The notes below the pieces were generated by a model. It searched no databases. It worked only from the letters and a program-made list of their open reading frames with translations, and was not told where the DNA came from. The position numbers were made by a program, and so were the translations under genes. A DNA stretch of 64,000 bases. Source: Trypanosoma brucei. Its lineage: Eukaryota. The stretch covers positions 832,001 to 896,000 of the forward strand of contig CP000066.1 of assembly GCA_000002445.1 (NCBI GenBank). Direction: 5' to 3'. Numbering within the stretch: position 1 is the stretch's first letter; every line of letters starts with the position of its first letter. Positions 36,392 through 64,000 of this stretch are shown in pieces.

Positions 36392-38467
36392 TTCTAATAT
36401 CTAATATAAAGAACAACCTACCCTCAAGAGGCGAAGGGAAAAAATACATAATTGGGGGCCCAAATTCATACCCACTCCATCATGACGTTTTCCCACGTGT
36501 GGCCATGTGTCCTAAGTCCAGTTAAGTGCAAATAGAGGCAAGAGATATATGCATAGCTGGTTCACCACGTCAATCACATGAAACAAACCTACTGATAGCG
36601 AACCAACTGTACAAACACACAGCAAGGGATCATTTTTGGAAATATCGTCGTTTCCACCTGGTACCATTAAACACATTCAGATAGGATAAACCCGTCAACA
36701 CGAAAGTTTAGCACCTCCGCTCGCAGGAACCTTTCAATGTCCTTTGTATGTGGCCCTAATATATATGTCTGCTTGAGGGAAAACAAGGGGTTGCCGCCAT
36801 TAGACCCTACTATGGGCGTTCTTACGGAACTCGAGGAATGTCCCTCAAACCACATGGTCACCTGGGCCCCTCCCGTCACATAGTCAGGTAAGTGAAGGAT
36901 TTCACGAATACGAACAACAACGGCAACACAATTCTCGTCTGCGAGGTGGATATGTACGTGACAAATCAGAAGAGGAGGTGGCCCCGACAGGTTGTAACAT
37001 TGGACAACCATTGTTTCTACCTCAGAACCCCCTAACGGTATACTTCCCAGGGAAGTTTTACAGGTCCCATAAAAGCATGAAAGCGGTGGCTGAGCATGAA
37101 CGCTTGAAGAAGCATCTTGCCCTAAGGCGCTTTTAAGATGCAACAGCAGCTTCTCGCGCTCCTCAAGGGCCTCTCTCAACTCCACTTCAACGTCAAAATC
37201 ACATCTGCAAGATAACATGTTCTGGAGAAACTGAATTTCGTCACGAGCAGAAATTATGTCAACATCCAAATCCGAAACAACTTTCGCTTCACAGCCAAGT
37301 TGTTCCTTTAGTGTTGCAACACGAGACTGTATCGCTTCAAAATTTAGCCTCCTTTCCGCTCTGTTGACTCTAACTTTGTTGGTAATTGCCGACGCGTTCT
37401 GTGCATACTCAAGTGTGGATATTGTCTCGGTTAAGTTCGAGGCGGAAGGGGACACTGTCGCAAGCATCCACGTTTTGCTGTTACCACCAAAGCTCTCTGA
37501 GAGAAGCCGAGTCAGTTTCGACGCGCGCAACGAGATGAAACCCCCATTCCCCTTCCGGTCACTAAAGGAGTTCAGCGCCCGCCCGAGCATCAGAAGAGAT
37601 TGGTTTATCTTCTTCGCTTCCTCAAAGGCAAGACCAGTGGATTCTGCTTTGCTCTGCCGCTCGCTTCCCGCCAAGTCCACCAGCATCGCAACACTTTCCA
37701 CATCCTTCGTCTCAAGTGATTCGTGCTGCTGGGAAATAGTAAGCTGAATAATGGCATGCGATCGGGAGCTGGTTTCGTTCATTTTTGTCTCTCCCTTTTG
37801 CCGGTTAGCATTGCCGATGCTGAGTAACTCCATCAGACGATCCAAACTCAGCACAGGGTGTATACCAGCACCCTTCACATAAACACGTCGCTGATTGTCC
37901 TCATGAATTTCTAGCGCCTCCGGCTCCTGTCCTCGCACACGCGGGGCGAGCAGATCGCGCACCTTCTCCATATACACTTCTACCATTGTCAAGGAAAATC
38001 TGATCGTTGCGCGATTGTCCGCTTCCATACGGCGCTGGCCCTCCTCAATCATTGCCTGAGCAAAGCGCGGTGCAATTCCACACCTCGTCTTATCGTTCAG
38101 ATCACCAAAAAGACTATATGTTTTCCCTGTCCCCGTCTGCCCATATGCAAATAAACAAACATTGAAGCCTTCAAACGCCTCCTTCAGCATCGGTCTCCCA
38201 ACAAAATCATAGACCTCCTCCTGAGAGCCAGTGAACACTCGGTCGAATTTGAGGGCAGAGCCACCTTTAGTGCCCTCACCGTCTATCACAACGACATGAT
38301 TGTCATCCGGGTCGCCGTGTACCACTGACCTCTCACCCTGACGCGTAGGGAAAATACGGACTCCCACCTGAACTCGGGTCCCCGTTCCCACAGAGTCATG
38401 CATTTCTAATATCTAATATAAAGAACAACCTACCCTCAAGAGGCGAAGGGGGAAAATACATAATCGT
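35356..38467. repeat. tandem segmental duplication (2012-bp period) covering the kinesin 5' flank plus motor-domain coding region
   Basis: 35356-36455 is nearly identical to 37368-38467, including a 50-bp identical 5' flank (atttctaatatctaatataaagaacaacctaccctcaagaggcgaaggg). The 3' halves of the genes are unrelated. Confidence 0.85.
36667..38403 (-). CDS. kinesin (N-terminal motor domain), tail variant B
   Basis: The same motor domain as the gene at 34616..36391 (two substitutions across about 340 aa) with a completely different C-terminal 230 aa. Confidence 0.9.
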   Translation of the reverse strand: MHDSVGTGTRVQVGVRIFPTRQGERSVVHGDPDDNHVVVIDGEGTKGGSALKFDRVFTGSQEEVYDFVGRPMLKEAFEGFNVCLFAYGQTGTGKTYSLFGDLNDKTRCGIAPRFAQAMIEEGQRRMEADNRATIRFSLTMVEVYMEKVRDLLAPRVRGQEPEALEIHEDNQRRVYVKGAGIHPVLSLDRLMELLSIGNANRQKGETKMNETSSRSHAIIQLTISQQHESLETKDVESVAMLVDLAGSERQSKAESTGLAFEEAKKINQSLLMLGRALNSFSDRKGNGGFISLRASKLTRLLSESFGGNSKTWMLATVSPSASNLTETISTLEYAQNASAITNKVRVNRAERRLNFEAIQSRVATLKEQLGCEAKVVSDLDVDIISARDEIQFLQNMLSCRCDFDVEVELREALEEREKLLLHLKSALGQDASSSVHAQPPLSCFYGTCKTSLGSIPLGGSEVETMVVQCYNLSGPPPLLICHVHIHLADENCVAVVVRIREILHLPDYVTGGAQVTMWFEGHSSSSVRTPIVGSNGGNPLFSLKQTYILGPHTKDIERFLRAEVLNFRVDGFILSECV

Positions 38468-39163: not shown

Positions 39164-40525
39164 TTAGGAGGTCACCATGTCCCTGGTGTAATGGTTAAAA
39201 AACGCCTCAAGAAGGTTCTTCAGATGAAGCAAATCGGCGGTCCCACACATCTCGCGAATGCTGTGCATGCTTAGCATCGGATTGCCCAAATCGACTGTTT
39301 GGATACCTGATAACGAGGACAAGATCGGCCCTATGGTTGAACCACACGGGGAATCATTCTTCACGCAAAATTCCTGAATGGGCACAGAAGCTCTTTTAGC
39401 GATTGCTTTTACAATCGCAGCGGTGACGCCATTTGTGGCATAGCGCATGTTTGCATTGTATTTGATGACTGGTCCCCGGTGAATAAGGGGGCGATGTTTT
39501 TCTTCGTGTTTATCCTGATAGTTAGGATGAACCGCGTGAGCGCCATCAACTGACATTAAGAATGAGTTAGCCACGAGCTGTGCACGAAGTCCTCCAGATG
39601 CAGAAATGTATTCAATCACATCTGGAACGAGTGAACCCCCGGCACCTTGAGAAGTAGATGATCCCACTTCTTCGTTATCGAAAAGGCACACCATTCTTAT
39701 CATGTTTTCTTCTTCCAGAGTTTTGTCTGATTCGAGAAGGGCTTTCACTCCGCAAAAACATGAAATAAGGTTATCAAGACGGGGTGCATATATGAATTCA
39801 TCGTTTGCCCCACCAACAACAGCATCCTGTGTATCGACTACGCTCAAGTCATAGTCGACTATCTCACTGGGCCGGCAACCAAGGGACTCCGCAAGCAAAA
39901 TAAGCAGCTGAGAGTTATGATGCTCGCTCACATCTCCATTTGGTGTGTGTGAGAGAGTAGTTGCTATTACAGGAACCAGATGTTTTTCTTTGTTTGGTCC
40001 GAACGCATTTCGCTCTTCCACTGACTGAAGGTGAATGGCGAGGGTTGGAATTCGCATAATCGGTTTATTCACCTTGACCAACCGTTTTACCAACTTAGAG
40101 GAGGAAATTATAACCCTTCCTGCAACAGTTAAATCACGATCAAACCAAGTGTGCCACAAGCCACCCCCGTAGCATTGTACCGCAACACCCTGGTAGTCAC
40201 TCCTCCCGGCCAGTGTTCGTGGTTTCAGTGCAAGATTCGGTGAATCGGTGTGAGCTCCAACAATTTTGAGTCCGTTTTCAGCTACGAACCGCCCTCCAAC
40301 GGAGAAGGCGACGAGACTACTGTCGTTTCTGGTTATAAAATACCTGTATCCATTCGTTAACTTAGGCCACGTTTCACCTTCCTTTAGTCTTTGGTAACCA
40401 GCGTTCGACAACCAAGATGAAAGTACCTCTACCGCATGAAAGGGGGTACATGCCTCATTTATAAAGTTGACAAACTCCTTCGCAAGCTGGGTTACAGGCG
40501 GTGAGTCAAGTGGCAACATAGACAA
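39164..40525 (-). CDS. aspartyl aminopeptidase (peptidase family M18)
   Basis: A 453-aa protein with the M18 signature GAHTDSPNLALKP, metal-binding His/Asp/Glu blocks, and a conserved C-terminal HSIRE region. Confidence 0.88.
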   Translation of the reverse strand: MSMLPLDSPPVTQLAKEFVNFINEACTPFHAVEVLSSWLSNAGYQRLKEGETWPKLTNGYRYFITRNDSSLVAFSVGGRFVAENGLKIVGAHTDSPNLALKPRTLAGRSDYQGVAVQCYGGGLWHTWFDRDLTVAGRVIISSSKLVKRLVKVNKPIMRIPTLAIHLQSVEERNAFGPNKEKHLVPVIATTLSHTPNGDVSEHHNSQLLILLAESLGCRPSEIVDYDLSVVDTQDAVVGGANDEFIYAPRLDNLISCFCGVKALLESDKTLEEENMIRMVCLFDNEEVGSSTSQGAGGSLVPDVIEYISASGGLRAQLVANSFLMSVDGAHAVHPNYQDKHEEKHRPLIHRGPVIKYNANMRYATNGVTAAIVKAIAKRASVPIQEFCVKNDSPCGSTIGPILSSLSGIQTVDLGNPMLSMHSIREMCGTADLLHLKNLLEAFFNHYTRDMVTS

Positions 40526-43658: not shown

Positions 43659-44957
43659 TTATTCTCTCTCCCTCTTTCTGTTTCTGTTGCTTGTTGACTG
43701 CATACCTCCTCTGTCTCTGAGGGTGTCTGGACTATTCCTGCGTCCGGTGCTTTTCCTGCTAGCTCCACCCTCGGCAATAAGGGGGGAAGTTGCAGAAGGG
43801 AGAGTGGGTTGTATGACTGTTACATTAGGGGAGGACTTCACCCGCGGCCGGCTCCGTTCAACCGCAATGAGAAATTGCGCCAGCCTTTTGGAGAAACATA
43901 TATCCTGCACACACACCCCCTCTACCGCAAACCTGACACGTAACTCCTTCAAACCGGGACAGCTCATCAAGTGCAGCGACGTTTCTTCGCAGTCGCCGCG
44001 TTGGCTGGTAACAGCGCGCTCTACTTTCATACCGCGCATCTTCTTTTGATGTAGGGTGAGGCCAGTTTTGCTAGCACACTGCCTTCCGCATGTCGGGCAC
44101 ACCAACATGGATGTGTTTGTATGCGGGGAATCAGTGGCACACAATTTTGTGCTTTTGCTGCATTTAAGCTCGACTCCCTCACCTTTGTGGAAAGCCTTGC
44201 AGTGTCGGATGAGGGAGTCCCTGCAACTGAGCACTTTTTGGCACACACCACACTGCACCTCGCCTTTCCCCGGGACGTCAACGTTTCCCTCACGGGTACG
44301 CTTACGAGGGAATTGCACCACCACCACGGTACCGTCCTCCGTCACTATGCTCTTATGTTTGAATTTCTTGCGTAGTGACAGGGAAGAGCGTGTACCGAAG
44401 CTCGCCTCGCACAGGTCACATTGAAACGGCAGCTCCTGTGTATCCTGAGGGGCTGGCGCTGCTGGGACGCTACCATCTCCTTGCAATGAGTCCTCGTTCT
44501 CTCGCCCCCTTTTCACGCGGTAACTACCGCTGCCTATGCCATGTATTGTTCTAAGGTGGTGTAATAGTCGGCCTGGCACTGCGAATTTGGAGGCACAGAG
44601 GGTACAATGAAGCACCTGCGGTCTCATCGGGACTCGTGTGCTCGGTGGTAGAGGAACGATCGCCACCACTGGAGGGGGCTCCGGGGGGATATCCACTATA
44701 GGTGTTGCATCGCCGTATTTGATCCTCCGGAGGGCATCAGCTCGCACAAAGCCGTGTGTGTTTACCATGTGCGTTACAGCACTCGAGCGGCATTGGTATG
44801 TGGCATCACATACCGTACATTTGGTTGGTTCGGAGGTTCTCTGAACAGTGCGTGTCGCAACAGGTGGGGCTGTTTGTATTGTTGGTTCTATCGCTGTATG
44901 TTGCGGGTTACACCATCGGCACTGCGGGGGCACACTCGGGTTGATCTTCCGCAACAT
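43659..44957 (-). pseudogene. retroelement ORF fragment: C2H2 zinc-finger (nucleic-acid chaperone-like) C-terminal domain
   Basis: At least five Cx2Cx12Hx3-5H fingers (for example CTVCDATYQCRSSAVTHMVNTHG and CTLCASKFAVPGRLLHHLRTIHG), as in the C-terminus of L1Tc/ingi ORFs. Confidence 0.65.
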
Positions 44958-45107
44958 CCATCCATAGTGCCTTGAAGACCCAACCCGAAAGCGTGCCAGT
45001 GCCGTTTCTTCTTCCCTCGTCAGTTCTTCTTTATGTTTTGTTGGAAAGTGGTTGCCCGTGATACCAAACCTATGAGTGTTCTCATGGACTTCTTCCTACC
45101 TAAGCAC

Positions 45108-47639
45108 TCACTTCGCATAAGCAATGATGTCGGGGATCCATGTGTCTCGCAACTGTGGTAAATCTGCAGCCTTTTTGGCCATTTCATCGCAAACCTCATT
45201 CCGTTTCACGCCACAATGGCCAAACACAAATTGCAGTCGGATACGTATCTTCCTTCTCTGAACTTGAAGCAGAAGCCTCCATAGTCGTCTCAGAATTGGG
45301 TCCGTTACGGCTAGGGGGCCTGTCTGCAGTGCTGTTAACATTGACAGCGAGTCAGAGAAGATGGACAACCTGCTCGGTGTGCTTCTGTATGCCGGAAGCC
45401 ATTTCAGCAGCCGTTGCAGTCCTATCTCTAATGCTACGCATTCCGCTCTGTAACTGCATGAGAGTTCCCCTGCTCCGGTTTTGGGTGCGCAAATCAGCGT
45501 GTTGTTTCTATAGAGCAGGGCAGCTGCCTCGGACTTCTCACCGAGGGACACGGATCCATCAGTCCACAATTCGTAGTGCTCTCGCCGCGGTGGCTCCTTC
45601 CCCCTCCGTGCAAAATGCCGTTCAATCCACTTTTCGGAAGCCTCCCTTTTGACATCGTCAGGGTCATCAGCGCACACAGGCTTTATCTGCGTGTGAAATA
45701 GCGATCGGCAGCTGTGGCGGAGCGTCGATGTCTCTAGTGGGTGCTCGCGTGGCTCAATGCGGAGGTGGGGGTAGGACCGCATGATGCGGGAATGTAGGGC
45801 TCTGACTGGGTGTTTGCTGTGGTATACTTCCTCAGCACTGCGGCGCAAACATCCGCCTCGTGACTCACACATCAGCATGAATTTCATGCCGCGCACAAGA
45901 GTGGTCGTCTTGAGTGGCAGGAGGTTTGCTTCCAGCAGAGAGTCCTCTTTGCGCGTCCCATGCGGTATGCCAGCTATGATGCGACTGGCTTTGTGTTGTG
46001 CTGCTGCAAGGAGGTCGCGACTTCGTTCCGAAGCGTCCCAGTACCATACCTCAATGCCATACATGGTGTGTGCCTGTACGAGTGCTAGATAAAAAGCTCT
46101 CAGTAGTTGTCGTCTTGGCCCCCATGTAGAAGCTGAGATGGCTGCTATCTGCAGTAGTCGGAAGTCCATCTTGCGTCTCGTTTCGGCCGCATGTGTTGCC
46201 ATCCCTTGCAGACACTGGAATGTTACTCCTAGAAGCTTCGGTGTCCTGTCAGCTCCTATTCTTTCGCCGTCCAGTTGTAATGTAAGGGGGTGGCGCTCTA
46301 TACACCCGAAGAGTGTGCACTTTGTTTTCGCTACGTTGACAGACATGAAGTACTCTTTTGACCACTGTAACACTACGTTGAGGCCGCATTGCAGTGTGTG
46401 GTTGATGACATCCCTCTCTCTGTATCTCGCAAGTAGCGTCAGGTCGTCTGCAAAGAATCCGTTCTGCAGTAACGGCAGTCCTGCAAGGCGCTGGCTCAAC
46501 GAGTTCATGACAATAATGAACATGATTGGGCCAAGGACAGTTCCTTGTGGCACTCCTCGTTCAAATGTTCTGCTGCTGGAAAGCTTCTCCTTGAATCTCA
46601 CTCTGCCAGTTCGGTTACTCAGAAATGATACGCACCACTTCACAATGTGGGGTGATACCTTCATTATGTGCATTTCCCTCGCAATTTTGTCGTGGTCTGC
46701 TGTATCGAATGCCTTCTCGTAGTCAACGAATACAGCACCCGTACGAGATTGGTGCGTGGGGCGGCAGAGGGCAGCGCGGACGTGCAGGAGTTGTTCGAGC
46801 GTTGAGCATCCGGGGCGAAAGCCTGATTGCTGCGGCGTCAGCTGGGACTCAACAGTGTCTCTAAGCCTCGCGGCAATTATGCGCTCCATGACTTTGCAGA
46901 GACAGCTCGTGAGCGTCACAGGCCTGTAAGAATCGAGGTCCTCCGCCTTTTTTCCGGCCTTCAGGATGGGGATGATAACACCAGTCTTCCATGCAGGCGG
47001 CACGACTCCCGTTCGTAGGCTCTCATTGAATAGCCTCAGAACAACATTCAGCGCTGTTCTGCCGAGATGTTGCAGTGCCTCGTTGTATAAGCAATCAGGT
47101 CCGGCAGCGGATCCACTCGGTAGCAGTTTGATCGATCTCCGTAGTTCAGCCATCGTGATGGGACTGAACTCACTCGCTGTCGTCTTTATGGGTGCCGGTG
47201 GGTGTGAGTCGGGGTGTCTTCTTGCGCGGGACGAGTACAGTTTAATGAACCTCTCAGCTTGACGGTAGTCCGTGATGGCCGCGTTATCAACCAGCGCCGC
47301 CGGTGTGGTTAGTGGTCGTGGCGCATATACCTTCTTGACAATGTGCCAACTGCAGCGGTCTGACACCGCAAGTCTGGAGCATAGCGTGCTCCATCTCTTC
47401 TTTGTGGTACGGTCCAGGATCTGCTTACGCGTGGCTACCAACTTTTCCCTTCGGTGGGAGGGTCCACATCCAGCGATCTCTTCATCGACTTTCGCGAGCT
47501 CAGGTGTCCAATGTGGTGGCGTTGCTCTGCAGCCACGGGGGACGGAGACCTTCGTCGCAATGCGGATGGCGGAGCTCAATTTAATGTTCCAGGGTGTTGA
47601 CGTTCTTCTCTCTACCAATTTTCCTGCAGAGCTCGTCAA
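45108..47639 (-). pseudogene. retroelement ORF fragment: reverse transcriptase plus RNase H
   Basis: RT blocks (PDCLYNEAL, FVDYEKAFDTADH, GVPQGTVLGP, FADDLTLL) are followed by an RNase H-like LWTDGS...ECVALEIGLQ. It ends in TGA (45108-45110), in the same frame as the downstream zinc-finger ORF. Confidence 0.8.
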
Positions 47640-47904
47640 CCTTGAGACGGAAATTCCTCCAGTTAGCTTTTAGCCATGCGTACATGGGCTTTCGAAGCCG
47701 CGGTCGGCTCAGTGCATCTGTGCCGTCTCCAACGATAACGTCGAAAAATATGTGATGGTGATCGCTATTGGGAGAATACAGCGATGCCCACGTGTACACT
47801 GTACAATTCCTTGACAGTTTCACATCAGGGGTGGACTCCCCGTGGTGGCGCGTGTACCTGGTGCACTCACCAGTGTTGCAGACCAGAAACTGGTTGTCAA
47901 TGCA

Positions 47905-48657
47905 TCACTGTGTGAGGGTTTCACCCTTGGTATTTGGTGGGCTCGCGCGATCCCATGCCAACGTGTGTGCGTTAGCGTCTGCACCGATGAGCTGGGAACC
48001 GTCAGTCGTCAGAACCGTATATAGGTCAGTTGCCGTGAAGGTGTGTTTTGGTGGGATGTATGCCGACGTGACGGTCAGCGCCGTTTCACGTGCAAGGTGA
48101 ATTGTTGCATGCACTTGTTCAATGCGACCAACAACGGCCATACCGGTCTCGACTGGTAGGTCCTCCCTCACTAGTGTTGATACACCACCTCCTTTGCAGT
48201 TACGAGCTATTCCGTGATGTTTGTAGCCAGCAACGCTAAAGCAAGCCGCCTCTCCAGGCGTCATCCTTGTCTCGCTCAACAGACAAAAGGCGATCCGCTC
48301 ATCAACAAGGGTTTTGTGGAGTGCTAATCTCTTTCCTTGAGATAGCCCGGCGCAGTTCCACTTCATCCCGCGCAACGACGGGCCGGGATTCTCTTCCACA
48401 TCACCGGACAGCAGCATCTTAGTGCGGATGATACTGCTGATGGCACGCTGGCACGTGCCCAGGGACCGACAAATGAAAAACGGTGTCCCAGCAAGACGCT
48501 GCTGATCACTGTGCTGTATGATGCCGTAGCCGGAGCACAGCATTGTTCCCCATGAAAGGAACGCTGCTAGCTCTTGGCTTCCCCCGATGATACGGGGCAC
48601 TGGACCCTGGCACCACGTTGAGGTGGCCGGCGTCGCCCCTGAGCAGACTCTTGACAA
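47905..48657 (-). pseudogene. retroelement ORF fragment: 2A-like peptide plus apurinic/apyrimidinic endonuclease domain
   Basis: SSIIRTKMLLSGDVEENPGP is followed by the exonuclease-III/APE fold (LLSETRM..., ...GGGVSTLVRED...). It lies in frame 0 and ends at a stop, and the next domain is in frame 2, so a frameshift separates them. Confidence 0.7.
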
Positions 48658-51600
48658 TCACAAACTCGCTGTTGCCGCTCATGGTATTGGAAGCAGGCCC
48701 ATCCCACCGTGGCAGACCAACACCCAAATAAGCTACGGGTGCTTCTCCTACAAATACGGGAGGGAAAGCGTATACCACATTGAAGTTTGTATTTAGTTAC
48801 TGATGTGGAATGGAATGGGATGTTTGATGGTATGGTGGAAAGGGTGACTGACATGCCGCAGTTGCCTGACCCGAAGCTCCAGGACATTGTAACCTACATG
48901 GGACCGATATTGCTGTCAGCGGAAAAGGGAGTGAAGAAGAGGTGGCAGTGGCTCGTTCCCACCCCGTTGCCTCTCGGCATTGCGAATGTATGCTGCGAAA
49001 TATCAACACGCGGACACCGCTGCAGTGCCTGAAATGAAAAGTACAAAGCTCGGCTTACAAAGCGTCGAACTCCGACAACCCATGCGACCACTGCGACAGC
49101 GAAAAACAGTATGACCCACACTGGTGATGAAATGAGGTGGCGTGAGCACAAAGCCCATGGCTAGTGCCAGTCGAGTGCTGTAACGCATATGGTAAACAAA
49201 CACGAATATGTCCGCGCGGATGCGCCGTGAATATCGAGGTGCGGCGACACACCGTGCCTTTCATGTATTTTCCGGGATCCTCTTCCAACTGAGAATTCAC
49301 AGCTAGGAGTGCAGTGTGCGCCGGAATGGGTTTAAGCAAGGAGACTGCTCGGGGAGACGCCGCAGAGCGCATCACGGTGTGTGTGTGTGTTTGGGGGAGG
49401 AGGAGGAGCTTGAGCTCAAGAGGTGGACGCACAAATGAACGACAGACACCAAGCAAATGCACATTAACACCAATGTTTCCAACATGTGTGTCACAGCGCC
49501 GCAATCAAACCTGACCTTGTACTTTATAGAAAGACACGCGTGGCTTCCACGCGACACCTGAAATCACAACCCAATGCAACGATTTCGATTGAAAGTTACC
49601 ATTATTATTGAGCTGCCAATGGGTGAAAGATTTTCATGGACAGTGTGTTGTGGAAGAGTGATCATACGGGTCTAAAGGACTTTGGAGATAATTTGCATAG
49701 TTTCTCCTCGCGGTGGAACGGTACCACCAGGCGCCGCACCCATTTTCCACTTGTATCTTCTCTTCTTGACACCATAGAAGGATCTGACAACACAAACAGC
49801 GCACGCAGCGATCATAAGCAAAGAGCTACCCCCACATACGGGAAAGAAGAGGAGAAAGAGGGATAAAGGGAATCGATAACATCAAAAAAAATTTATGTCA
49901 GAAAGTTTAGCGACTTCGCATCTTTAAAATGAGCACACTGTGGGGAAGTGTGCTGTTCCGTCTCCTGTATACTGCGCTATGACGACTCTGAAGGAGTAAA
50001 AGAAAACATCGGAATGGAGGGAGGCATACATTATACATAACGAAGAGACTCAACCACATTCATCAACAACAAAAGCAATTCCAATATACACTAGTCAACA
50101 ACCACCTCAGCGGTGAAGTTAACTCCAACGCGAGGACAGGAAAATATCCCCTAAAAAGAGTCCTGCACGACTTGGTTCGTGATGGATTGGGAAAGGCTCA
50201 CATTGTACCTTACTTTATGGTAGACAAGACCGTATGCCTTTCCCAAGCCTAACGGTGACGAACGAGAGGACATTGTCTGATACCATAACGAAAGCTAACG
50301 GGCAGAAGGTGTCACTTACGTATTTGGTAGCGCGTACCATTTAGTCACATTTGGCATCATAAGCAGCTATAGCGCATTACTCTTCTTCAGGCAACCGAAG
50401 TTATGGTATCATTGTGTCATCGTCACTGAGCAGGAAATGTTTTCACAGATGGTATAAGGAAAAGAGTATGTGCTTCTTCTACATAAATTTCTACGAGAAG
50501 ATAGAGTTTAAGGCTGCGCTTGCATCGATGTATTTCTCAACGTTTCAAAGGAAAGAAGCAGTTGTGAGATGTTGTGGAGCAAGTGAAAGAGATTGAGATA
50601 AATATGGATGATATTGGATGATCGGATTCATATGGTGGGGCCTTTACTGCCTTTGTTGAATGGAACTTCCTACAAGCAATGCTGTGATGTGGAGGAACCA
50701 CGATATGAACTTACTGATTTAGTTGTAACAATTGTATGACGGTTCATGAAAGCATCAGAGTATCTGGAAAACGAGTGATGGGAATGTAAGACATGAGACA
50801 CACAGCAAAAAATGCAATTCTAATCCAAGTGAGTGGTGAGGTGATGCACAGACATGTTCGTTGTGTTACATTGCTCTGGAGAAGAGACTGAAAGCTTCGG
50901 TGTATGGAGTCCATATCATTGGGAGGAATCAACCGTACAAGACATTTTATCACGTACTTCAGTGAGATGTTACACAAGGTATTAGAGAATGTTACTGTGA
51001 ATAGTAGCCTTAATGGCTGACTTCACCGCAAACGACGTGGGTGGAGCTTACGAAATAAAACGCCTTCAGCGTGGTAAGGAGCTATCTTGACACAAATATG
51101 TGTTATTACAAGGAAAGATATCGCCATATGCGTATTATTTTCCTTATGTTGATGTTTTGTGCGTGGCATACAATCAAAAATGTAACGAAGGTTGGATACC
51201 CTTACACAACCCATCAAAGACAATTTTCCATCTTGCTGATACGTTTTGTTTGTGTGTGGGGGGGGGGGGGAATTACAGTCAAATGTAATGTCGATCCACA
51301 ATTGTTTTGATTCATGCAGTAACAGAATATATCGACATTGTGTTTCACCTGACTCAGTCATTATGTCTATAAGGGGAATAAAGGAGGCACTTGATCCTAG
51401 GGGGACTTTTGAAAGACAATCTGGAATGGGGAAATCATCTTTATGCGTCATGTGTACTGCACAGGAAGTGTTTGAGATTAAGCGTAAACTTCATTCAAAT
51501 GAAGAGAACACGAATCCGAAATGTGTGGGTATTATGAAAGCACGATCACCCCCCACACCCACTGAAGATGGGCAAATCGATGAGAAACTGTGGGGTAATG

Positions 51601-52170
51601 TCAACCACGATAAATGGTGAAGTTGGATACCGAGGTCATCAGTCGTTCTATCAATACTCTACACGATATCAATGGCACTAAAAAAACAACTCATGGCTCC
51701 GAAAAGGAAAAAAAAACAGTAGCTGATGTTATTGATCTGTTTCCTTATACTGTAACTTCGCTGCTGAATGCTTCCCTGGACGTGCGCTTCTTCGTGCGTG
51801 TAAACACGAAGTTATATCAGCTTTCAGAATGAGGACATGCATTGGTTTTCACGATGAGCGTCTTACACGACATTACAATATGTTATGCCACATCTACTTG
51901 AGGTTCAGCATACCTTCACAACATTTTCCCGCTATTGTATTTTTTTTTTTCGATATCATTCTGATTAGGGAAATTGGTTTTAGAATTGGCAGGCAAAAAA
52001 TATTGGGCAAATGGGTGTCACTTGTATGAGACATATCCTGTTTTGATTTTATGATAAAATATTATTTATGTTATCCTTCATTTTATTAAATATAAGTATG
52101 CTTGGTAGAAGTGTGCAAATAGTGCTGCATACGTGTGGGATTCGTCCTAGTGTGGTAGTTATATTATTAC

Positions 52171-52280
52171 NNNNNNNNNNNNNNNNNNNNNNNNNNNNNN
52201 NNNNNNNNNNNNNNNNNNNNNNNNNNNNNNNNNNNNNNNNNNNNNNNNNNNNNNNNNNNNNNNNNNNNNNNNNNNNNNNN
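52171..52280. other. assembly gap (110 N)
   Basis: A run of n characters at the proximal edge of the satellite array. The array length is therefore a minimum. Confidence 0.99.
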
Positions 52281-55200
52281 TATCGCACAAAACCCTGTTA
52301 CAGTGTGATTGGGTAACGCCCTTCCACTGATCACATGCATTGGTGGCACATCATGGCCCATCTTTCATGGTTATCGCCCCTACGGCGCATAATGGCGTGT
52401 TATCGCACAAAACCCTGTTACAGTGTGATTGGGTAACGCCCTTCCACTGATCACATGCATTGGTGGCACATCATGGCCCATCTTTCATGGTTATCGCCCC
52501 TACGGCGCATAATGGTGTGTTATCGCACAAAACCCTGTTACAATGCGATTGGGTAACGCCCTTCCACTGATCACATGCATTGGTGGCACATCATGGCCCA
52601 TGTTTCATGGTTATCGCCCCTACGGCGCATAATGGTGTGTTATCGCACAAAACCCTGTTACAATGCGATTGGGTAACGCCCTTCCACTGATCACATGCAT
52701 TGGTGGCACATCATGGCCCATATTTCATGGTTATCGCCCCTACGGCGCATAATGGCGTGTTATCGCACAAAACCCTGTTACAGTGTGATTGGGTAACGCC
52801 CTTCCACTGATCACATGCATTGGTGGCACATCATGGCCCATCTTTCATGGTTATCGCCCCTACGGCGCATAATGGCGTGTTATCGCACAAAACCCTGTTA
52901 CAGTGTGATTGGGTAACGCCCTTCCACTGATCACATGCATTGGTGGCACATCATGGCCCATCTTTCATGGTTATCGCCCCTACGGCGCATAATGGCGTGT
53001 TATCGCACAAAACCCTGTTACAGTGTGATTGGGTAACGCCCTTCCACTGATTACATGCATTGGTGGCACATCATGGCCCATCTTTCATGGTTATCGCCCC
53101 TACGGCGCATAATGGCGTGTTATCGCACAAAACCCTGTTACAGTGTGATTGGGTAACGCCCTTCCACTGATTACATGCATTGGTGGCACATCATGGCCCA
53201 TGTTTCATGGTTATCGCCCCTACGGCGCATAATGGCGTGTTATCGCACAAAACCCTGTTACAGTGTGATTGGGTAACGCCCTTCCACTGATCACATGCAT
53301 TGGTGGCACATCATGGCCCATCTTTCATGGTTATCGCCCCTACGGCGCATAATGGCGTGTTATCGCACAAAACCCTGTTACAATGCGATTGGGTAACGCC
53401 CTTCCACTGATCACATGCATTGGTGGCACATCATGGCCCATCTTTCATGGTTATCGCCCCTACGGCGCATAATGGCGTGTTATCGCACAAAACCCTGTTA
53501 CAGTGTGATTGGGTAACGCCCTTCCACTGATTACATGCATTGGTGGCACATCATGGCCCATGTTTCATGGTTATCGCCCCTACGGCGCATAATGGCGTGT
53601 TATCGCACAAAACCCTGTTACAGTGTGATTGGGTAACGCCCTTCCACTGATCACATGCATTGGTGGCACATCATGGCCCATCTTTCATGGTTATCGCCCC
53701 TACGGCGCATAATGGTGAGTTATCGCACAAAACCCTGTTACAGTGTGATTGGGTAACGCCCTTCCACTGATCACATGCATTGGTGGCACATCATGGCCCA
53801 TCTTTCATGGTTATCGCCCCTACGGCGCATAATGGTGAGTTATCGCACAAAACCCTGTTACAGTGTGATTGGGTAACGCCCTTCCACTGATCACATGCAT
53901 TGGTGGCACATCATGGCCCATCTTTCATGGTTATCGCCCCTACGGCGCATAATGGCGTGTTATCGCACAAAACCCTGTTACAGTGTGATTGGGTAACGCC
54001 CTTCCACTGATTACATGCATTGGTGGCACATCATGGCCCATGTTTCATGGTTATCGCCCCTACGGCGCATAATGGCGTGTTATCGCACAAAACCCTGTTA
54101 CAGTGTGATTGGGTAACGCCCTTCCACTGATCACATGCATTGGTGGCACATCATGGCCCATCTTTCATGGTTATCGCCCCTACGGCGCATAATGGTGTGT
54201 TATCGCACAAAACCCTGTTACAATGCGATTGGGTAACGCCCTTCCACTGATCACATGCATTGGTGGCACATCATGGCCCATCTTTCATGGTTATCGCCCC
54301 TACGGCGCATAATGGCGTGTTATCGCACAAAACCCTGTTACAGTGTGATTGGGTAACGCCCTTCCACTGATCACATGCATTGGTGGCACATCATGGCCCA
54401 TCTTTCATGGTTATCGCCCCTACGGCGCATAATGGTGTGTTATCGCACAAAACCCTGTTACAATGCGATTGGGTAACGCCCTTCCACTGATCACATGCAT
54501 TGGTGGCACATCATGGCCCATCTTTCATGGTTATCGCCCCTACGGCGCATAATGGTGTGTTATCGCACAAAACCCTGTTACAGTGTGATTGGGTAACGCC
54601 CTTCCACTGATCACATGCATTGGTGGCACATCATGGCCCATCTTTCATGGTTATCGCCCCTACGGCGCATAATGGCGTGTTATCGCACAAAACCCTGTTA
54701 CAGTGTGATTGGGTAACGCCCTTCCACTGATCACATGCATTGGTGGCACATCATGGCCCATCTTTCATGGTTATCGCCCCTACGGCGCATAATGGTGTGT
54801 TATCGCACAAAACCCTGTTACAATGCGATTGGGTAACGCCCTTCCACTGATCACATGCATTGGTGGCACATCATGGCCCATGTTTCATGGTTATCGCCCC
54901 TACGGCGCATAATGGTGTGTTATCGCACAAAACCCTGTTACAATGCGATTGGGTAACGCCCTTCCACTGATCACATGCATTGGTGGCACATCATGGCCCA
55001 TATTTCATGGTTATCGCCCCTACGGCGCATAATGGCGTGTTATCGCACAAAACCCTGTTACAATGCGATTGGGTAACGCCCTTCCACTGATCACATGCAT
55101 TGGTGGCACATCATGGCCCATCTTTCATGGTTATCGCCCCTACGGCGCATAATGGCGTGTTATCGCACAAAACCCTGTTACAGTGTGATTGGGTAACGCC

Positions 55201-58200
55201 CTTCCACTGATCACATGCATTGGTGGCACATCATGGCCCATCTTTCATGGTTATCGCCCCTACGGCGCATAATGGTGTGTTATCGCACAAAACCCTGTTA
55301 CAGTGTGATTGGGTAACGCCCTTCCACTGATCACATGCATTGGTGGCACATCATGGCCCATCTTTCATGGTTATCGCCCCTACGGCGCATAATGGCGTGT
55401 TATCGCACAAAACCCTGTTACAGTGTGATTGGGTAACGCCCTTCCACTGATCACATGCATTGGTGGCACATCATGGCCCATCTTTCATGGTTATCGCCCC
55501 TACGGCGCATAATGGTGTGTTATCGCACAAAACCCTGTTACAATGCGATTGGGTAACGCCCTTCCACTGATCACATGCATTGGTGGCACATCATGGCCCA
55601 TGTTTCATGGTTATCGCCCCTACGGCGCATAATGGTGTGTTATCGCACAAAACCCTGTTACAATGCGATTGGGTAACGCCCTTCCACTGATCACATGCAT
55701 TGGTGGCACATCATGGCCCATATTTCATGGTTATCGCCCCTACGGCGCATAATGGCGTGTTATCGCACAAAACCCTGTTACAGTGTGATTGGGTAACGCC
55801 CTTCCACTGATCACATGCATTGGTGGCACATCATGGCCCATCTTTCATGGTTATCGCCCCTACGGCGCATAATGGTGAGTTATCGCACAAAACCCTGTTA
55901 CAGTGTGATTGGGTAACGCCCTTCCACTGATCACATGCATTGGTGGCACATCATGGCCCATCTTTCATGGTTATCGCCCCTACGGCGCATAATGGTGAGT
56001 TATCGCACAAAACCCTGTTACAGTGTGATTGGGTAACGCCCTTCCACTGATCACATGCATTGGTGGCACATCATGGCCCATCTTTCATGGTTATCGCCCC
56101 TACGGCGCATAATGGTGAGTTATCGCACAAAACCCTGTTACAGTGTGATTGGGTAACGCCCTTCCACTGATCACATGCATTGGTGGCACATCATGGCCCA
56201 TCTTTCATGGTTATCGCCCCTACGGCGCATAATGGTGAGTTATCGCACAAAACCCTGTTACAGTGTGATTGGGTAACGCCCTTCCACTGATTACATGCAT
56301 TGGTGGCACATCATGGCCCATCTTTCATGGTTATCGCCCCTACGGCGCATAATGGCGTGTTATCGCACAAAACCCTGTTACAGTGTGATTGGGTAACGCC
56401 CTTCCACTGATTACATGCATTGGTGGCACATCATGGCCCATGTTTCATGGTTATCGCCCCTACGGCGCATAATGGCGTGTTATCGCACAAAACCCTGTTA
56501 CAGTGTGATTGGGTAACGCCCTTCCACTGATCACATGCATTGGTGGCACATCATGGCCCATCTTTCATGGTTATCGCCCCTACGGCGCATAATGGTGAGT
56601 TATCGCACAAAACCCTGTTACAGTGTGATTGGGTAACGCCCTTCCACTGATCACATGCATTGGTGGCACATCATGGCCCATCTTTCATGGTTATCGCCCC
56701 TACGGCGCATAATGGTGTGTTATCGCACAAAACCCTGTTACAATGCGATTGGGTAACGCCCTTCCACTGATCACATGCATTGGTGGCACATCATGGCCCA
56801 TCTTTCATGGTTATCGCCCCTACGGCGCATAATGGCGTGTTATCGCACAAAACCCTGTTACAGTGTGATTGGGTAACGCCCTTCCACTGATCACATGCAT
56901 TGGTGGCACATCATGGCCCATCTTTCATGGTTATCGCCCCTACGGCGCATAATGGCGTGTTATCGCACAAAACCCTGTTACAGTGTGATTGGGTAACGCC
57001 CTTCCACTGATCACATGCATTGGTGGCACATCATGGCCCATCTTTCATGGTTATCGCCCCTACGGCGCATAATGGCGTGTTATCGCACAAAACCCTGTTA
57101 CAATGCGATTGGGTAACGCCCTTCCACTGATCACATGCATTGGTGGCACATCATGGCCCATCTTTCATGGTTATCGCCCCTACGGCGCATAATGGCGTGT
57201 TATCGCACAAAACCCTGTTACAGTGTGATTGGGTAACGCCCTTCCACTGATCACATGCATTGGTGGCACATCATGGCCCATCTTTCATGGTTATCGCCCC
57301 TACGGCGCATAATGGTGTGTTATCGCACAAAACCCTGTTACAATGCGATTGGGTAACGCCCTTCCACTGATCACATGCATTGGTGGCACATCATGGCCCA
57401 TATTTCATGGTTATCGCCCCTACGGCGCATAATGGCGTGTTATCGCACAAAACCCTGTTACAGTGTGATTGGGTAACGCCCTTCCACTGATCACATGCAT
57501 TGGTGGCACATCATGGCCCATCTTTCATGGTTATCGCCCCTACGGCGCATAATGGTGAGTTATCGCACAAAACCCTGTTACAGTGTGATTGGGTAACGCC
57601 CTTCCACTGATCACATGCATTGGTGGCACATCATGGCCCATCTTTCATGGTTATCGCCCCTACGGCGCATAATGGTGAGTTATCGCACAAAACCCTGTTA
57701 CAGTGTGATTGGGTAACGCCCTTCCACTGATTACATGCATTGGTGGCACATCATGGCCCATCTTTCATGGTTATCGCCCCTACGGCGCATAATGGCGTGT
57801 TATCGCACAAAACCCTGTTACAGTGTGATTGGGTAACGCCCTTCCACTGATTACATGCATTGGTGGCACATCATGGCCCATGTTTCATGGTTATCGCCCC
57901 TACGGCGCATAATGGCGTGTTATCGCACAAAACCCTGTTACAGTGTGATTGGGTAACGCCCTTCCACTGATCACATGCATTGGTGGCACATCATGGCCCA
58001 TCTTTCATGGTTATCGCCCCTACGGCGCATAATGGTGTGTTATCGCACAAAACCCTGTTACAATGCGATTGGGTAACGCCCTTCCACTGATCACATGCAT
58101 TGGTGGCACATCATGGCCCATCTTTCATGGTTATCGCCCCTACGGCGCATAATGGCGTGTTATCGCACAAAACCCTGTTACAGTGTGATTGGGTAACGCC

Positions 58201-59990
58201 CTTCCACTGATCACATGCATTGGTGGCACATCATGGCCCATCTTTCATGGTTATCGCCCCTACGGCGCATAATGGTGTGTTATCGCACAAAACCCTGTTA
58301 CAATGCGATTGGGTAACGCCCTTCCACTGATCACATGCATTGGTGGCACATCATGGCCCATCTTTCATGGTTATCGCCCCTACGGCGCATAATGGCGTGT
58401 TATCGCACAAAACCCTGTTACAGTGTGATTGGGTAACGCCCTTCCACTGATCACATGCATTGGTGGCACATCATGGCCCATCTTTCATGGTTATCGCCCC
58501 TACGGCGCATAATGGTGTGTTATCGCACAAAACCCTGTTACAATGCGATTGGGTAACGCCCTTCCACTGATCACATGCATTGGTGGCACATCATGGCCCA
58601 TGTTTCATGGTTATCGCCCCTACGGCGCATAATGGTGTGTTATCGCACAAAACCCTGTTACAATGCGATTGGGTAACGCCCTTCCACTGATCACATGCAT
58701 TGGTGGCACATCATGGCCCATATTTCATGGTTATCGCCCCTACGGCGCATAATGGCGTGTTATCGCACAAAACCCTGTTACAGTGTGATTGGGTAACGCC
58801 CTTCCACTGATCACATGCATTGGTGGCACATCATGGCCCATCTTTCATGGTTATCGCCCCTACGGCGCATAATGGTGAGTTATCGCACAAAACCCTGTTA
58901 CAGTGTGATTGGGTAACGCCCTTCCACTGATCACATGCATTGGTGGCACATCATGGCCCATCTTTCATGGTTATCGCCCCTACGGCGCATAATGGTGAGT
59001 TATCGCACAAAACCCTGTTACAGTGTGATTGGGTAACGCCCTTCCACTGATCACATGCATTGGTGGCACATCATGGCCCATCTTTCATGGTTATCGCCCC
59101 TACGGCGCATAATGGTGAGTTATCGCACAAAACCCTGTTACAGTGTGATTGGGTAACGCCCTTCCACTGATTACATGCATTGGTGGCACATCATGGCCCA
59201 TCTTTCATGGTTATCGCCCCTACGGCGCATAATGGCGTGTTATCGCACAAAACCCTGTTACAGTGTGATTGGGTAACGCCCTTCCACTGATTACATGCAT
59301 TGGTGGCACATCATGGCCCATGTTTCATGGTTATCGCCCCTACGGCGCATAATGGCGTGTTATCGCACAAAACCCTGTTACAGTGTGATTGGGTAACGCC
59401 CTTCCACTGATCACATGCATTGGTGGCACATCATGGCCCATCTTTCATGGTTATCGCCCCTACGGCGCATAATGGTGAGTTATCGCACAAAACCCTGTTA
59501 CAGTGTGATTGGGTAACGCCCTTCCACTGATCACATGCATTGGTGGCACATCATGGCCCATCTTTCATGGTTATCGCCCCTACGGCGCATAATGGTGAGT
59601 TATCGCACAAAACCCTGTTACAGTGTGATTGGGTAACGCCCTTCCACTGGTTACATGCATTGGTGGCACATCATGGCCCATCTTTCATGGTTATCGCCCC
59701 TACGGCGCATAATGGCGTGTTATCGCACAAAACCCTGTTACAGTGTGATTGGGTAACGCCCTTCCACTGATTACATGCATTGGTGGCACATCATGGCCCA
59801 TGTTTCATGGTTATCGCCCCTACGGCGCATAATGGCGTGTTATCGCACAAAACCCTGTTACAGTGTGATTGGGTAACGCCCTTCCACTGATCACATGCAT
59901 TGGTGGCACATCATGGCCCATGTTTCATGGTTATCGCCCCTACGGCGCATAATGGTGTGTTATCGCACAAAACCCTGTTACAATGCGATT
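52281..59990. repeat. 120-bp tandem satellite array (about 64 copies, about 51% GC); candidate centromere-associated repeat
   Basis: The unit tacggcgcataatggcgtgttatcgcacaaaaccctgttacagtgtgattgggtaacgcccttccactgatcacatgcattggtggcacatcatggcccatctttcatggttatcgcccc repeats with an exact 120-bp period. Four polymorphic sites define variant units arranged in recurring blocks. Confidence 0.95.
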
Positions 59991-62900
59991 ATTTCTTGTG
60001 TGTTTTGTAACATCGGTGGGAATTCGTGATTGGTTGAGTTGATGGTTGCTGTTTCTGTGTTTCTTGCCTTAAATGTTTTTCCTCTCCATCACTCTGTGTC
60101 TTTTCTTTTATTAGACTTTTCACCTTATGTTTCTCCGCTACTTTTCCGCTTACATTGTCACATAACCTCGTTCCATTTAGAGGATTTTCAGCTGTTTGCT
60201 CAAGAAGTGTTGCGCCAGTGTATCTGTTTTTGGTGTTGTCGTCTGTGTTTCCATTCTTACCGGAGACAATAGCGTAACCTCCTTTATATTCCTATTTTCT
60301 TTGGGTCACGCTCGAGCCATTCTTTACCCCGTGCACCTGTGTTTGTTGGCAAGCTATTCAATCGTTCTTATTCTGCGAGTAGTGTGTGGTGAAAGTACAA
60401 AAAAAATGACTTTATCAGCATTCATGCACATCCCTACTTAGAATATGATTCTATTGCTGTCGCTAATTCAGTTCAATTTCGAGTTCCAGTTTAATACCCA
60501 GCACCCTCCGTATGTGGCCACGCCCAGCTGTGAGGACCAGTTACGCCTTCGAGGCTTTATTGCGGCCTTCCCAGAGTTGGCTCTCCTCAGTTTCCCTTCC
60601 AAATGCCCCTGGACGAGGCAGCCTGCTTCGCCTGGCTGTGTGTATGGAGCTAACTCCCGACTGCTCCAGTTCATATCGGCACCGGTCATCAATGCGCTAA
60701 CTGTTGGGCGGAGCGAATCCGGCGCTCGCCTTGTGGCCGCTTCCGCTTTTTAGGGATATGTTGGCAGAAATGTGACTTGTAGCCCCTGCCCGGCATCGAT
60801 TTAGCCGATGCTCTTTCATACCTCCCTGTACATCGCGGGGCCCAAAGCATACCGTCGCTACCCGTTTCAAGTATTGGTTCTGTCTTCATTTTCAGGGCCG
60901 TGCAATTTCTATGGTCTTCTGTTAATATTTCATTTTTGTATTCCGCTTCTTTGGGCACACGTAATCCTCGCAAAATTCAGAAATTGACGTCGTAACTGTG
61001 AAGTTGCTTTGCCAAAGCGAATCTTTTCGGCTGTGGGAGCTCCCTAGCTCCCCATTGCGATCCATGTGGGATTGTGTCCGGGTTATTTTTGTAGAGCGTG
61101 CTTGATGACTGTGCTGGCCTACAGACCACCGAAAAGGTGCCCTCACGATTGCAGAAGGGTAAGGTGATGTTCCTTTTCATCCCCGAGAACCGATGACTTT
61201 GATGCCTGCTCCCCCCGGAGGCCGACAATCATCTGCCTGCCCCAATCACTAAGGAACAGAATTCATGAACACGCTCGGTTTTCCCTCTCATCTGGAATAT
61301 GGGCCCTGACATTACTATGGAGTGTGCAACGTAATAAGGGGTGAGTGGTAGCTCAGCGACTTGACTGCTTGGAAGGGCAGAAACGCATACGCCAGTAAAG
61401 GTTTCGACCATGGACGGTCACCGCCAACTTCATTTCCGAAGCGGCAAAAGCAATCAAACTGGGGGAAAGCCATTTTCTTGAATCGTAGCGACTTTTCTAA
61501 ACTTAGAGATGATACTTGATTCAGTTGAGCACAGTCATGTCGTCCGTGCATCGGAGCAGCTGAAAGCAAGTTCTTTCCCAATGCAGTGGACAAAATGTTT
61601 AACGCCCAACGGAGCGGGAAGGGTCAGAAGCAATACGCTTTCTCAGAGCTCCAGTTGGACGTGTGGGATCCATAGGGGATCGGTGCTACGCCACCGACTC
61701 TCAACTGTAACGATGGAGCGGCAGGGTAAACTACTCGAAGGAACGTGGAGGAACCTACACCACCTTCGGCGCGGACAAATAACACCCAAAAAGACGAACT
61801 GAGAAAGTGAAAAAATGAGAGCTGCGCTGCAACGGAGAAGGTGGTTTTCGCGATAGTTGCTCAGAAGGTGCTTTATGGAAGTGGTGGAAAAAAAAAACGG
61901 GCCGCACGCCACTTGGATTGGGCGCTTGGAATCCACCAAGCCTCAGGCTGGCAAGAAAAAAGTTAAATGGTGCCAAGACCGAAAAGCTCCGAGCCCCTCT
62001 GCAGCCGTTGAAAGAGGTGCTGAAGCATGTTCAACAAACGGCAAATCAGAAAGGACGAAATTAAGGAGGCCCAAAGCCGCAGTGTTACCTGAACGGGGCT
62101 CCCCAGAAGGAAGCGTTTACAGCCCTCCACTCTGGGCCCACACCAGCAAAGATGAACTACGGTATCGCTTTTAGGTGGTTCTGGGCCCCCACTTGAAGCG
62201 GTGAGAGGGGAGGATGGAAGGCATGCGAACGCAGTCGGCATGCACGATTGCTTGGGTCTCATCGGACGCAAACAAACAAGACATGCTCAAAAAAACACGA
62301 CTGATATTTGTTTGAAAAGCGGCAAACAAGAGGGTGATGGAACGCAACCCGCTGTACAATGCTAAAAGGGGACGCTTTTCAGACAAAGTCGATGATTTCC
62401 TCAAGACCATTCAACACATGAATGGCTGAATTCAGTGGAGGCATGGTGCTCCGAGATCAAAAATCAGGGTGTACTCTATAAATGAGGCTCATTGAATGCT
62501 GGCCCCTGAATGTGCACAAATGTGTCTCCCCCTATGGGAGCGTGAGAACGGGTGCGCCGCGTGGAGAGAACTGGGTCCACACAGTGAAAAAAATGGAAAG
62601 ATGGATCGGGGAGGTTAAACACTTCTCGGGGCTCAGGGGAGATAATCTCAGACAAGGAGTATGGAAAAGTAAGGAAATAAAGAGGCACCGAAAGGTTAGC
62701 ACGCAGCCACCAGACGGGGTGTGTTGACAAGCCCGAAGGTCGCCGGAGCTTTCCTTCTTGCCGAAACGGTCCGCGCGTTCAAAGCGCGTCCCCTCATCGA
62801 CTATCGGTCGCTGCTTTTGGCACTGCAGAACAGGCTTACTGCGCTCGTGGATAAAGCCGCGCCGCTGATATAAGCGCTCCACCCGCGTGCGGACGCCGCG

Positions 62901-64000
62901 GGGCCCTCGTGCATTCACAGTTTATTTACAGTCGCTGAGGTGTGGCCGTGGCTGGGCTTTCAGGCGTGGAGGCCCAAGCCACCGCCAACTTTCAAGTGTG
63001 TGTGTGTGTATGGGGACGGGGGGGGGGGGGGTGGCATAAATACCCGAAGTCACTGGACTTGCCAAACGGGCCGTCAGAGTATTCAGGATAAAGGCACGTA
63101 GACAAATCAGAAACCACTATGAATTCACCCCGTAAGATGCATCGCCCAGCCCAGGACAGGCTAGTGAACTCGCGCCATGTTGGACGGGGAAACAGGCTTC
63201 ATGTGGGCGGGTCTTTTGAACCGGTGGGCTAGCACAAGAGGAAGAAAGGTGGCGACGAGCTCCTAGCAGGGGCCGGTAAGATTCAAAATAGCGACCCACC
63301 CCTAACCGTGTACGAATGCGATTGGATTCCTGCATAACCTTGCTGCATGATGGGGTTTCAACCCAGGGAAGTGGTGCGAGGCACACGCGTCGCGTGCGAA
63401 ATCTCTCTTTCGGCGAGACGTCGTATTAACTGAAATAGGACACGGAACTCGGGGTTGCGCCAGAACTCGCGGCTGATGCTTTGTCTTGCCCGCCAAAGCT
63501 GCATGTATGCTTTGTATGCCGCGCATCCTTTTTTTGTTTATCGCGCTCGGTGGGTCACATGCCATCAACTTGCTGCTACCGAAGTCAGAGCGAACCATAT
63601 TCACTTCCTGGAGGATTACTGTATGTTATGTCCGAACTAGTTATGCGTGACCAGTTGCAAACGTTCAGCTTTTAGTCCTCGGTCTTCCTTAATTGCGAAA
63701 ACAGTTTACTTGAGAGTGAAAGGCTTCTGCCTCTTTTTTTTTTTTTTTTGAGCCAAACGTAGAAGAGCATAGTGGAGTTTACAATTTTCATTCAGAGGAG
63801 TGGGCAGCTTTTTGTGTAGTCTATTCTCCTTTATAGGGGTGTTCCTCTCGAATGAAGAAAGTACATGTTGGAAGAGAATGAGGGGTTTCTTAATTTCTTG
63901 GAGGAATTGTGCAAGGTTCTTGGTGAACACTGTCTTCTGCATATTTTCGCCCTCAAGCCCGAAGTGACTGCGGAGCACTTTAGGCTTGAGCGCACGAGTA

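Follow-up and report, generated by a model that had tools for sequence, protein, structure and literature searches.

In a 64,000-nt stretch of Trypanosoma brucei DNA, which is here called the window, a tandem array of a 120-bp unit lies at positions 52281-59990. We consider it almost certain that this array is the assembled stump of the known 120-bp satellite at the single regional centromere of chromosome 3 in strain TREU927. The array lies in non-coding DNA by the head of a polycistronic gene cluster, amid an ingi element and degenerate ingi-like remnants. The satellite is not new. It is already published and well characterised: the mapping of the locus dates from 2007, the sizing from 2012, the work on kinetochore proteins from 2014, and the complete assembly, in another strain, from 2025. 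An earlier note on this DNA, made from the sequence, had proposed a chromosome-specific centromeric satellite here, and this proposal is supported by the published match and by the identity of the locus. The checks that it suggested (sizing of the array, KKT2/KKT3 chromatin immunoprecipitation sequencing (ChIP-seq), and topoisomerase-II mapping) are already in the literature.

The 120-bp array and its place on chromosome 3

Tandem Repeats Finder, run on the window, identified the array as its single dominant tandem repeat (52281-59990, period 120, 64.2 copies, 98% matches, 0% indels, score 14643). When the array was cut into 120-bp units, 64 complete copies arranged head-to-tail and a remainder of 30 bp were obtained (64.25 copies). 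A run of exactly 110 N occupies 52171-52280, immediately 5' of the first complete unit. These three results agree with the earlier count of about 64 copies next to a 110-N gap. A 38-mer from the unit matched 64 times at three or fewer mismatches, always on the plus strand and at 120-bp spacing, and 0 matches were expected from 100 shuffles. The consensus of the monomer is TATCGCACAAAACCCTGTTACAGTGTGATTGGGTAACGCCCTTCCACTGATCACATGCATTGGTGGCACATCATGGCCCATCTTTCATGGTTATCGCCCCTACGGCGCATAATGGCGTGT (120 bp). Its composition is 50.8% GC, or 49.2% AT, and the unit is thus not AT-rich, as had been noted from a value of about 51% GC.

The right junction of the array (59990/59991) is abrupt and falls inside a monomer. 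No degenerate monomers were found at the array edges or in the flanks within the window, and a sensitive blastn search of the array-masked window with the monomer gave no meaningful match (best E = 5.7). Two related loci contained no copy or relic of the monomer either.

Obado et al. (2007) mapped etoposide-induced topoisomerase-II cleavage on chromosomes 1-8, and every cleavage site was between directional gene clusters and had ingi or DIRE elements and a tandem array, with each array at a single site per chromosome (PMC1868937). For chromosome 3, their Table 1 lists a 120-bp unit with 49% AT at the cleavage site between Tb927.3.3410 and Tb927.3.3430 (PMC1868937); the 120-bp unit that the earlier note mentioned for one megabase chromosome is therefore the chromosome 3 repeat. 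The array studied here shares with this CEN3 repeat the 120-bp unit, the composition (49% AT published, 49.2% here), and the adjoining gene Tb927.3.3410. The assembled sizes also agree, since the TREU927 array in GeneDB is 7.8 kb (884223-891983, PMC3292466) and the array here is 7.71 kb plus the gap, with an unclosed gap in both. No difference between the two was detected, the consensus sequences not having been compared base by base.

The true array is longer than the assembled part, as was expected from the gap. Obado et al. gave its size on chromosome 3 as unknown because of the unclosed gap, with up to 30 kb in one bacterial artificial chromosome (PMC1868937). Restriction mapping by Echeverry et al. 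(2012) gave arrays of 75 and 80 kb on the two homologues of TREU927 (PMC3292466), and the nanopore assembly of Lister 427 by Krasilnikova et al. (2025) contains the complete chromosome 3 array on contig tig00000642, which is 30.2 kb with 50% AT for the array (PMC11739655, Supplementary Table 4).

The genes on the left identify the locus. Between 1221 and 40525, all 17 open reading frames (ORFs) of at least 150 aa are on the minus strand, and therefore the array lies beyond the head of a directional cluster, as had been claimed. The first gene of this cluster encodes a protein with 0 mismatches over 451 residues to XP_843934.1 (T. b. brucei TREU927, T. equiperdum) and 1 mismatch to the T. b. 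gambiense DAL972 protein, and its best matches are trypanosome proteins. Tb927.3.3410 is named aspartyl aminopeptidase in the literature, and Tb927.3.3390 and Tb927.3.3400 are kinesins, which fits the two tandem kinesin genes next to it. On chromosome 3 of DAL972 (FN554966.1), a syntenic region of 21 kb, which stops about 1.7 kb before the gap, has 98.6% nucleotide identity to window positions 29164-50509, so that the window comes from T. brucei but not from DAL972. Protein identity, gene order, assembled array size, and synteny with DAL972 together suggest that the window corresponds to about 832-896 kb of TREU927 chromosome 3. The left marker Tb927.3.3410 is present, and the right marker Tb927.3.3430 is beyond the window end (>64 kb). 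Searches for RNA genes found no Rfam family in the whole window at gathering thresholds, none in 48.5-64 kb at E <= 0.1, and no tRNA in the window with ARAGORN. Since no rRNA, tRNA, or Rfam family is present in the window, the rRNA genes and Tb927.3.3430 must lie beyond 64 kb.

Some points weigh against the assignment to the chromosome 3 centromere. The published consensus was not found as text (Figure 7 of Obado et al. is an image), either in the supplements or in a full-text search with 14- and 16-base fragments of the monomer. The strain was assigned from the identical protein, the order of the genes, and the agreement with the assembled size of 7.8 kb, and the window includes neither the gene cluster on the right nor the rRNA genes reported next to the repeat. 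The KKT2/KKT3 peak of chromosome 3 adjoins the repeats and is not on them (Akiyoshi and Gull 2014, PMC3978658). Finally, the order of the monomer variants may not mirror the true array, as this is a collapsed Sanger-era assembly from which about nine-tenths of the array is absent.

It might also be argued that the array is not centromeric and is just a common tandem repeat, or an artefact of the assembly, in a gene-poor region, as it abuts an assembly gap and its monomer has no recognisable motif or structure. This is very improbable. Topoisomerase-II cleavage, ChIP of KKT proteins, and fluorescence in situ hybridization of CEN3 independently place the centromere here, the 120-bp repeat itself having been used as the probe to follow segregation of chromosome 3 (PMC3978658), and both restriction mapping and the nanopore assembly indicate a large and real array.

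Comparison with other centromere repeats and variation among the units

Among the centromere repeats of T. brucei, the 120-bp unit can be set beside the CIR147 repeats, whose canonical arrays are on chromosomes 4, 5, and 8, while chromosomes 9-11 have been assigned similar units of 147 bp. Like the array studied here, CIR147 is repeated in tandem at one site on each chromosome, with gene clusters on either side and ingi or degenerate ingi-like elements next to it, and it is at the site of topoisomerase II and KKT proteins. The CIR147 units, however, are about 147 bp long with 59-62% AT, they have sub-repeats of about 48 and 30 bp, they give rise to small interfering RNAs (siRNAs), and the KKT peak is on the array. 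The 120-bp unit has 49% AT and no sub-repeat signal, its KKT peak is beside the array, and Tschudi et al. (2012) detected no small RNAs derived from the array of chromosome 3, in contrast to CIR147 (PMC3447711). Obado et al. described the chromosome 3 unit as distinctive, with just 53% identity to the chromosome 4 unit (PMC1868937). The conserved CIR147 site TTGACGTGAAAATAC, a 15-mer targeted by a synthetic transcription activator-like effector (TALE) protein, had a best match with 6-7 mismatches in the monomer. A CIR147-type unit was therefore rejected, because the 120-bp unit differs in length, AT content, sub-repeats, the conserved site, and siRNAs.

The centromeres of T. cruzi are GC-rich strand-switch domains. 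They resemble the locus studied here in that they are not AT-rich, are at a gene-cluster boundary, and contain degenerate retroelements without long terminal repeats, but they have no satellite at all, whereas the array here is tens of kb long. The mouse minor satellite also has a 120-bp monomer, and its copies likewise form a homogeneous array in tandem at a regional centromere. The two are unrelated in sequence, and the equal length is a coincidence. Moreover, the mouse array binds CENP-A and CENP-B, while trypanosomes are without CENP-A and use KKT proteins.

Within the monomer itself, there are no significant internal sub-repeats (best circular self-match 43/120, compared with 41.0 +/- 2.2 in shuffles), no dyad symmetry or hairpin potential, and no inverted 7-mers. 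Folding of the dimer as single-stranded DNA gave no excess over shuffles (z = -0.48). A coding array was rejected, because all six frames of the monomer contain stops.

Variation among the monomers is limited to seven positions, which define 11 monomer types. A fixed higher-order period of the alpha-satellite type was rejected since no lag was consistent (the best lags, 24-25, had 10-14 identical pairs out of 39-40), although this negative is tentative as the assembly is collapsed. Blocks of three successive variants, on the other hand, are repeated more often than in shuffles (19 observed and 3.2 +/- 1.8 in shuffles, with 0 of 2000 shuffles reaching 19), and a block of six units recurs 25 units apart, at units 27 and 52. 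Such block duplication would be the product expected of unequal exchange within the array. Judging from its structure, the array is probably kept homogeneous and changed in length by this process, and this would explain the duplicated blocks, the length difference between the homologues, and the failure of the assembly. It also agrees with the differing array lengths published for TREU927 and Lister 427. Because about nine-tenths of the array is missing from the assembly, the variant order may partly reflect read collapse.

Position of the kinetochore relative to the array

Akiyoshi and Gull (2014) found strong KKT2/KKT3 ChIP-seq peaks at every mapped centromere, and on the seven further chromosomes that they examined (1, 2, 4-8) the peak was on the array (PMC3978658). 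The earlier note had named enrichment of kinetochore proteins over the array as a check. The enrichment is there at the locus, where KKT2 and KKT3 have a peak, but it is adjacent to the array and not over it (PMC3978658). Since the chromosome 3 peak is next to the repeats, the locus is centromeric but the satellite may not be the kinetochore platform. For the same reason, the array is best seen as part of the centromere domain and not as a proven kinetochore-binding sequence.

In one explanation, which in our view stands about an even chance, the 120-bp array itself is the kinetochore platform and the adjacent signal is an artefact of mapping or assembly. The kinetochores of the other seven chromosomes examined are on their arrays, topoisomerase-II cleavage maps to the array region of chromosome 3 (PMC1868937), and the published statement that the peak is adjacent rests on short reads mapped to a reference with only about 10% of the TREU927 array. 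Against this explanation, the sole array-resolved published result that we found puts the peak adjacent, and the ratios in that work were input-normalised, so that a collapsed repeat should not hide the signal (PMC3978658).

The alternative is that the kinetochore assembles next to the array, on GC-neutral DNA with many degenerate retroelements (about 60-64 kb and onward), and that the array is a boundary, a zone of cohesion or decatenation, or a replication-origin zone. We lean against it, although it is a serious possibility. The same input-normalised enrichment beside the repeats of chromosome 3, unlike that of chromosomes 1, 2, and 4-8, speaks for it, degenerate ingi-like remnants are directly to the right of the array, and the centromeres of T. 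cruzi work with degenerate retroelements and without a satellite (PMC1868937). Against it, an array that is 98% homogeneous and 4 to 10 times under-represented in the reference is a poor target for the mapping of short reads. A TALE study in 2026 reported that the DNA of all centromeres, including chromosome 3, is enriched in KKT2 ChIP, with array and flank not separated, and the kinetochores of the seven other chromosomes are on their arrays.

A natural separation of satellite and kinetochore on chromosome 3, in which the kinetochore would be maintained, as in T. cruzi, on the flank rich in degenerate retroelements (about 60-64 kb and onward), is rather unlikely. It was hinted at by the 2014 ChIP-seq data (PMC3978658), and we found no re-examination on a gap-free assembly in the literature. 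If there were such a separation, the GC-neutral array, which has neither siRNAs nor sub-repeats, may have another role, for example as a boundary, in decatenation, or as an origin of replication. Among the T. brucei centromeres, that of chromosome 3 stands apart, as its repeat is not AT-rich, it has no siRNAs, and the KKT peak is beside the array. It is thus well suited to the question of whether kinetochores depend on satellite DNA for their positioning in an organism without CENP-A.

From the literature, the domain of satellite and retroelements would be where the kinetoplastid kinetochore, made of KKT proteins and without CENP-A, is maintained. KKT2 binds DNA without sequence preference (PMC8178753). 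The DNA contacts of the kinetochore are not sequence-specific, the repeats differ between chromosomes, and T. cruzi has no repeats; the position of the kinetochore is therefore probably inherited epigenetically and not read from the 120-bp sequence. Topoisomerase II, according to published work, would gather in this domain as well and there decatenate the sister chromatids. As a class, the T. brucei centromeres have the most prominent early replication peaks in marker frequency analysis (MFA-seq) and would be the most prominent early origins, a general statement that is not specific to chromosome 3 (PMC11739655).

Flanking retroelements and neighbouring genes

The coordinates of the array and of the features around it are listed in Table 1.

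Table 1. Features identified in the window, with the evidence for each
Feature	Coordinates	Strand	Evidence
Tandem kinesin genes, fit Tb927.3.3390/3400	36667-38403 and 34616-36391	-	Pfam and gene order
Aspartyl aminopeptidase gene Tb927.3.3410, published left marker of the chromosome 3 repeat; heads the leftward cluster	39164-40525	-	Pfam Peptidase_M18, E = 8e-154
ingi retrotransposon, near full length	43662-48417	-	Pfam RVT_1, RNase_H, Exo_endo_phos_2, zf-C2H2; tblastn
Degenerate ingi-like fragment of DIRE type, oriented head-to-head to the ingi element	48642-49224	+	tblastn, DAL972 ingi protein residues 1015-1228, 35-85% identity, E = 4e-9
AT-richer spacer from the left retroelement fragment to the gap	49225-52170		Composition; about 40-42% GC from 50 kb on
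Assembly gap, 110 N, standing for the unassembled rest of the array	52171-52280		N run; published array sizes
120-bp satellite associated with the chromosome 3 centromere (CEN3 repeat; very probable), 64.25 copies, 11 monomer variants	52281-59990	+	Tandem Repeats Finder, per-unit variant table, 38-mer count
Very degenerate remnants of retroelements in a mosaic that follows the array on its right	60435-62265		tblastn
Endonuclease-like remnant	60435-61090	-	tblastn, E = 5e-4
Reverse-transcriptase-like remnant	61488-62265	+	tblastn, E = 6e-8

Degenerate ingi-like remnants flank the array on both sides. The earlier note had described the neighbouring ingi-type element as degenerate, and this did not hold for the adjoining ingi element (43662-48417), which is nearly intact; it holds for the smaller fragments at 48642-49224, 60435-61090, and 61488-62265. 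The ingi element encodes an endonuclease, a reverse transcriptase, an RNase H, and a zinc-finger tail, and it has 93-96% protein identity to an intact 1585-aa copy from DAL972 over residues 1-1585 (tblastn). Just two lesions were found in it, a frameshift near 47583 and an in-frame stop at 45108-45110. In T. b. gambiense DAL972, the syntenic ingi copy is annotated as one open 1585-aa gene. The spacer of about 3 kb between the left fragment and the gap contained no credible ORF, no Rfam or tRNA match, and no repeat.

To the right of the array, the segment 892,214-893,422 has been described as "in the centromere of chromosome 3" (Akiyoshi and Gull, PMC3978658). With the published array end (891,983) anchored to window position 59990, this segment would map to about 60.2-61.4 kb (+/-60 bp) and overlap the retroelement mosaic. 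The plus strand immediately past the array (59991-60400) is very rich in T and in pyrimidines (AT skew -0.31 over 60-61 kb), much like the polypyrimidine tracts found ahead of trans-splice sites. Within the degenerate retroelement region, there is also a (GT)n run followed by about 14 G at 62990-63035.

In the gene cluster on the left, the other genes closest to the array encode an NIF phosphatase, a SET-domain protein, and an acyltransferase (Pfam). The two tandem kinesins (591 aa at 34616-36391 and 578 aa at 36667-38403) have common stretches of 1.1 kb that are about 99.3% identical, and this near-identity points to a recent duplication or gene conversion. A T. equiperdum contig, which ends short of the ingi element, has a single, split kinesin copy compared with two in the window, and this difference is probably an assembly collapse. 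Farther from the array, a 39-bp tandem repeat (4.8 copies, 97% matching) is at 6291-6477, inside the minus-strand ORF 5686-6672, and it would code for a 13-residue repeat within this 328-aa ORF.

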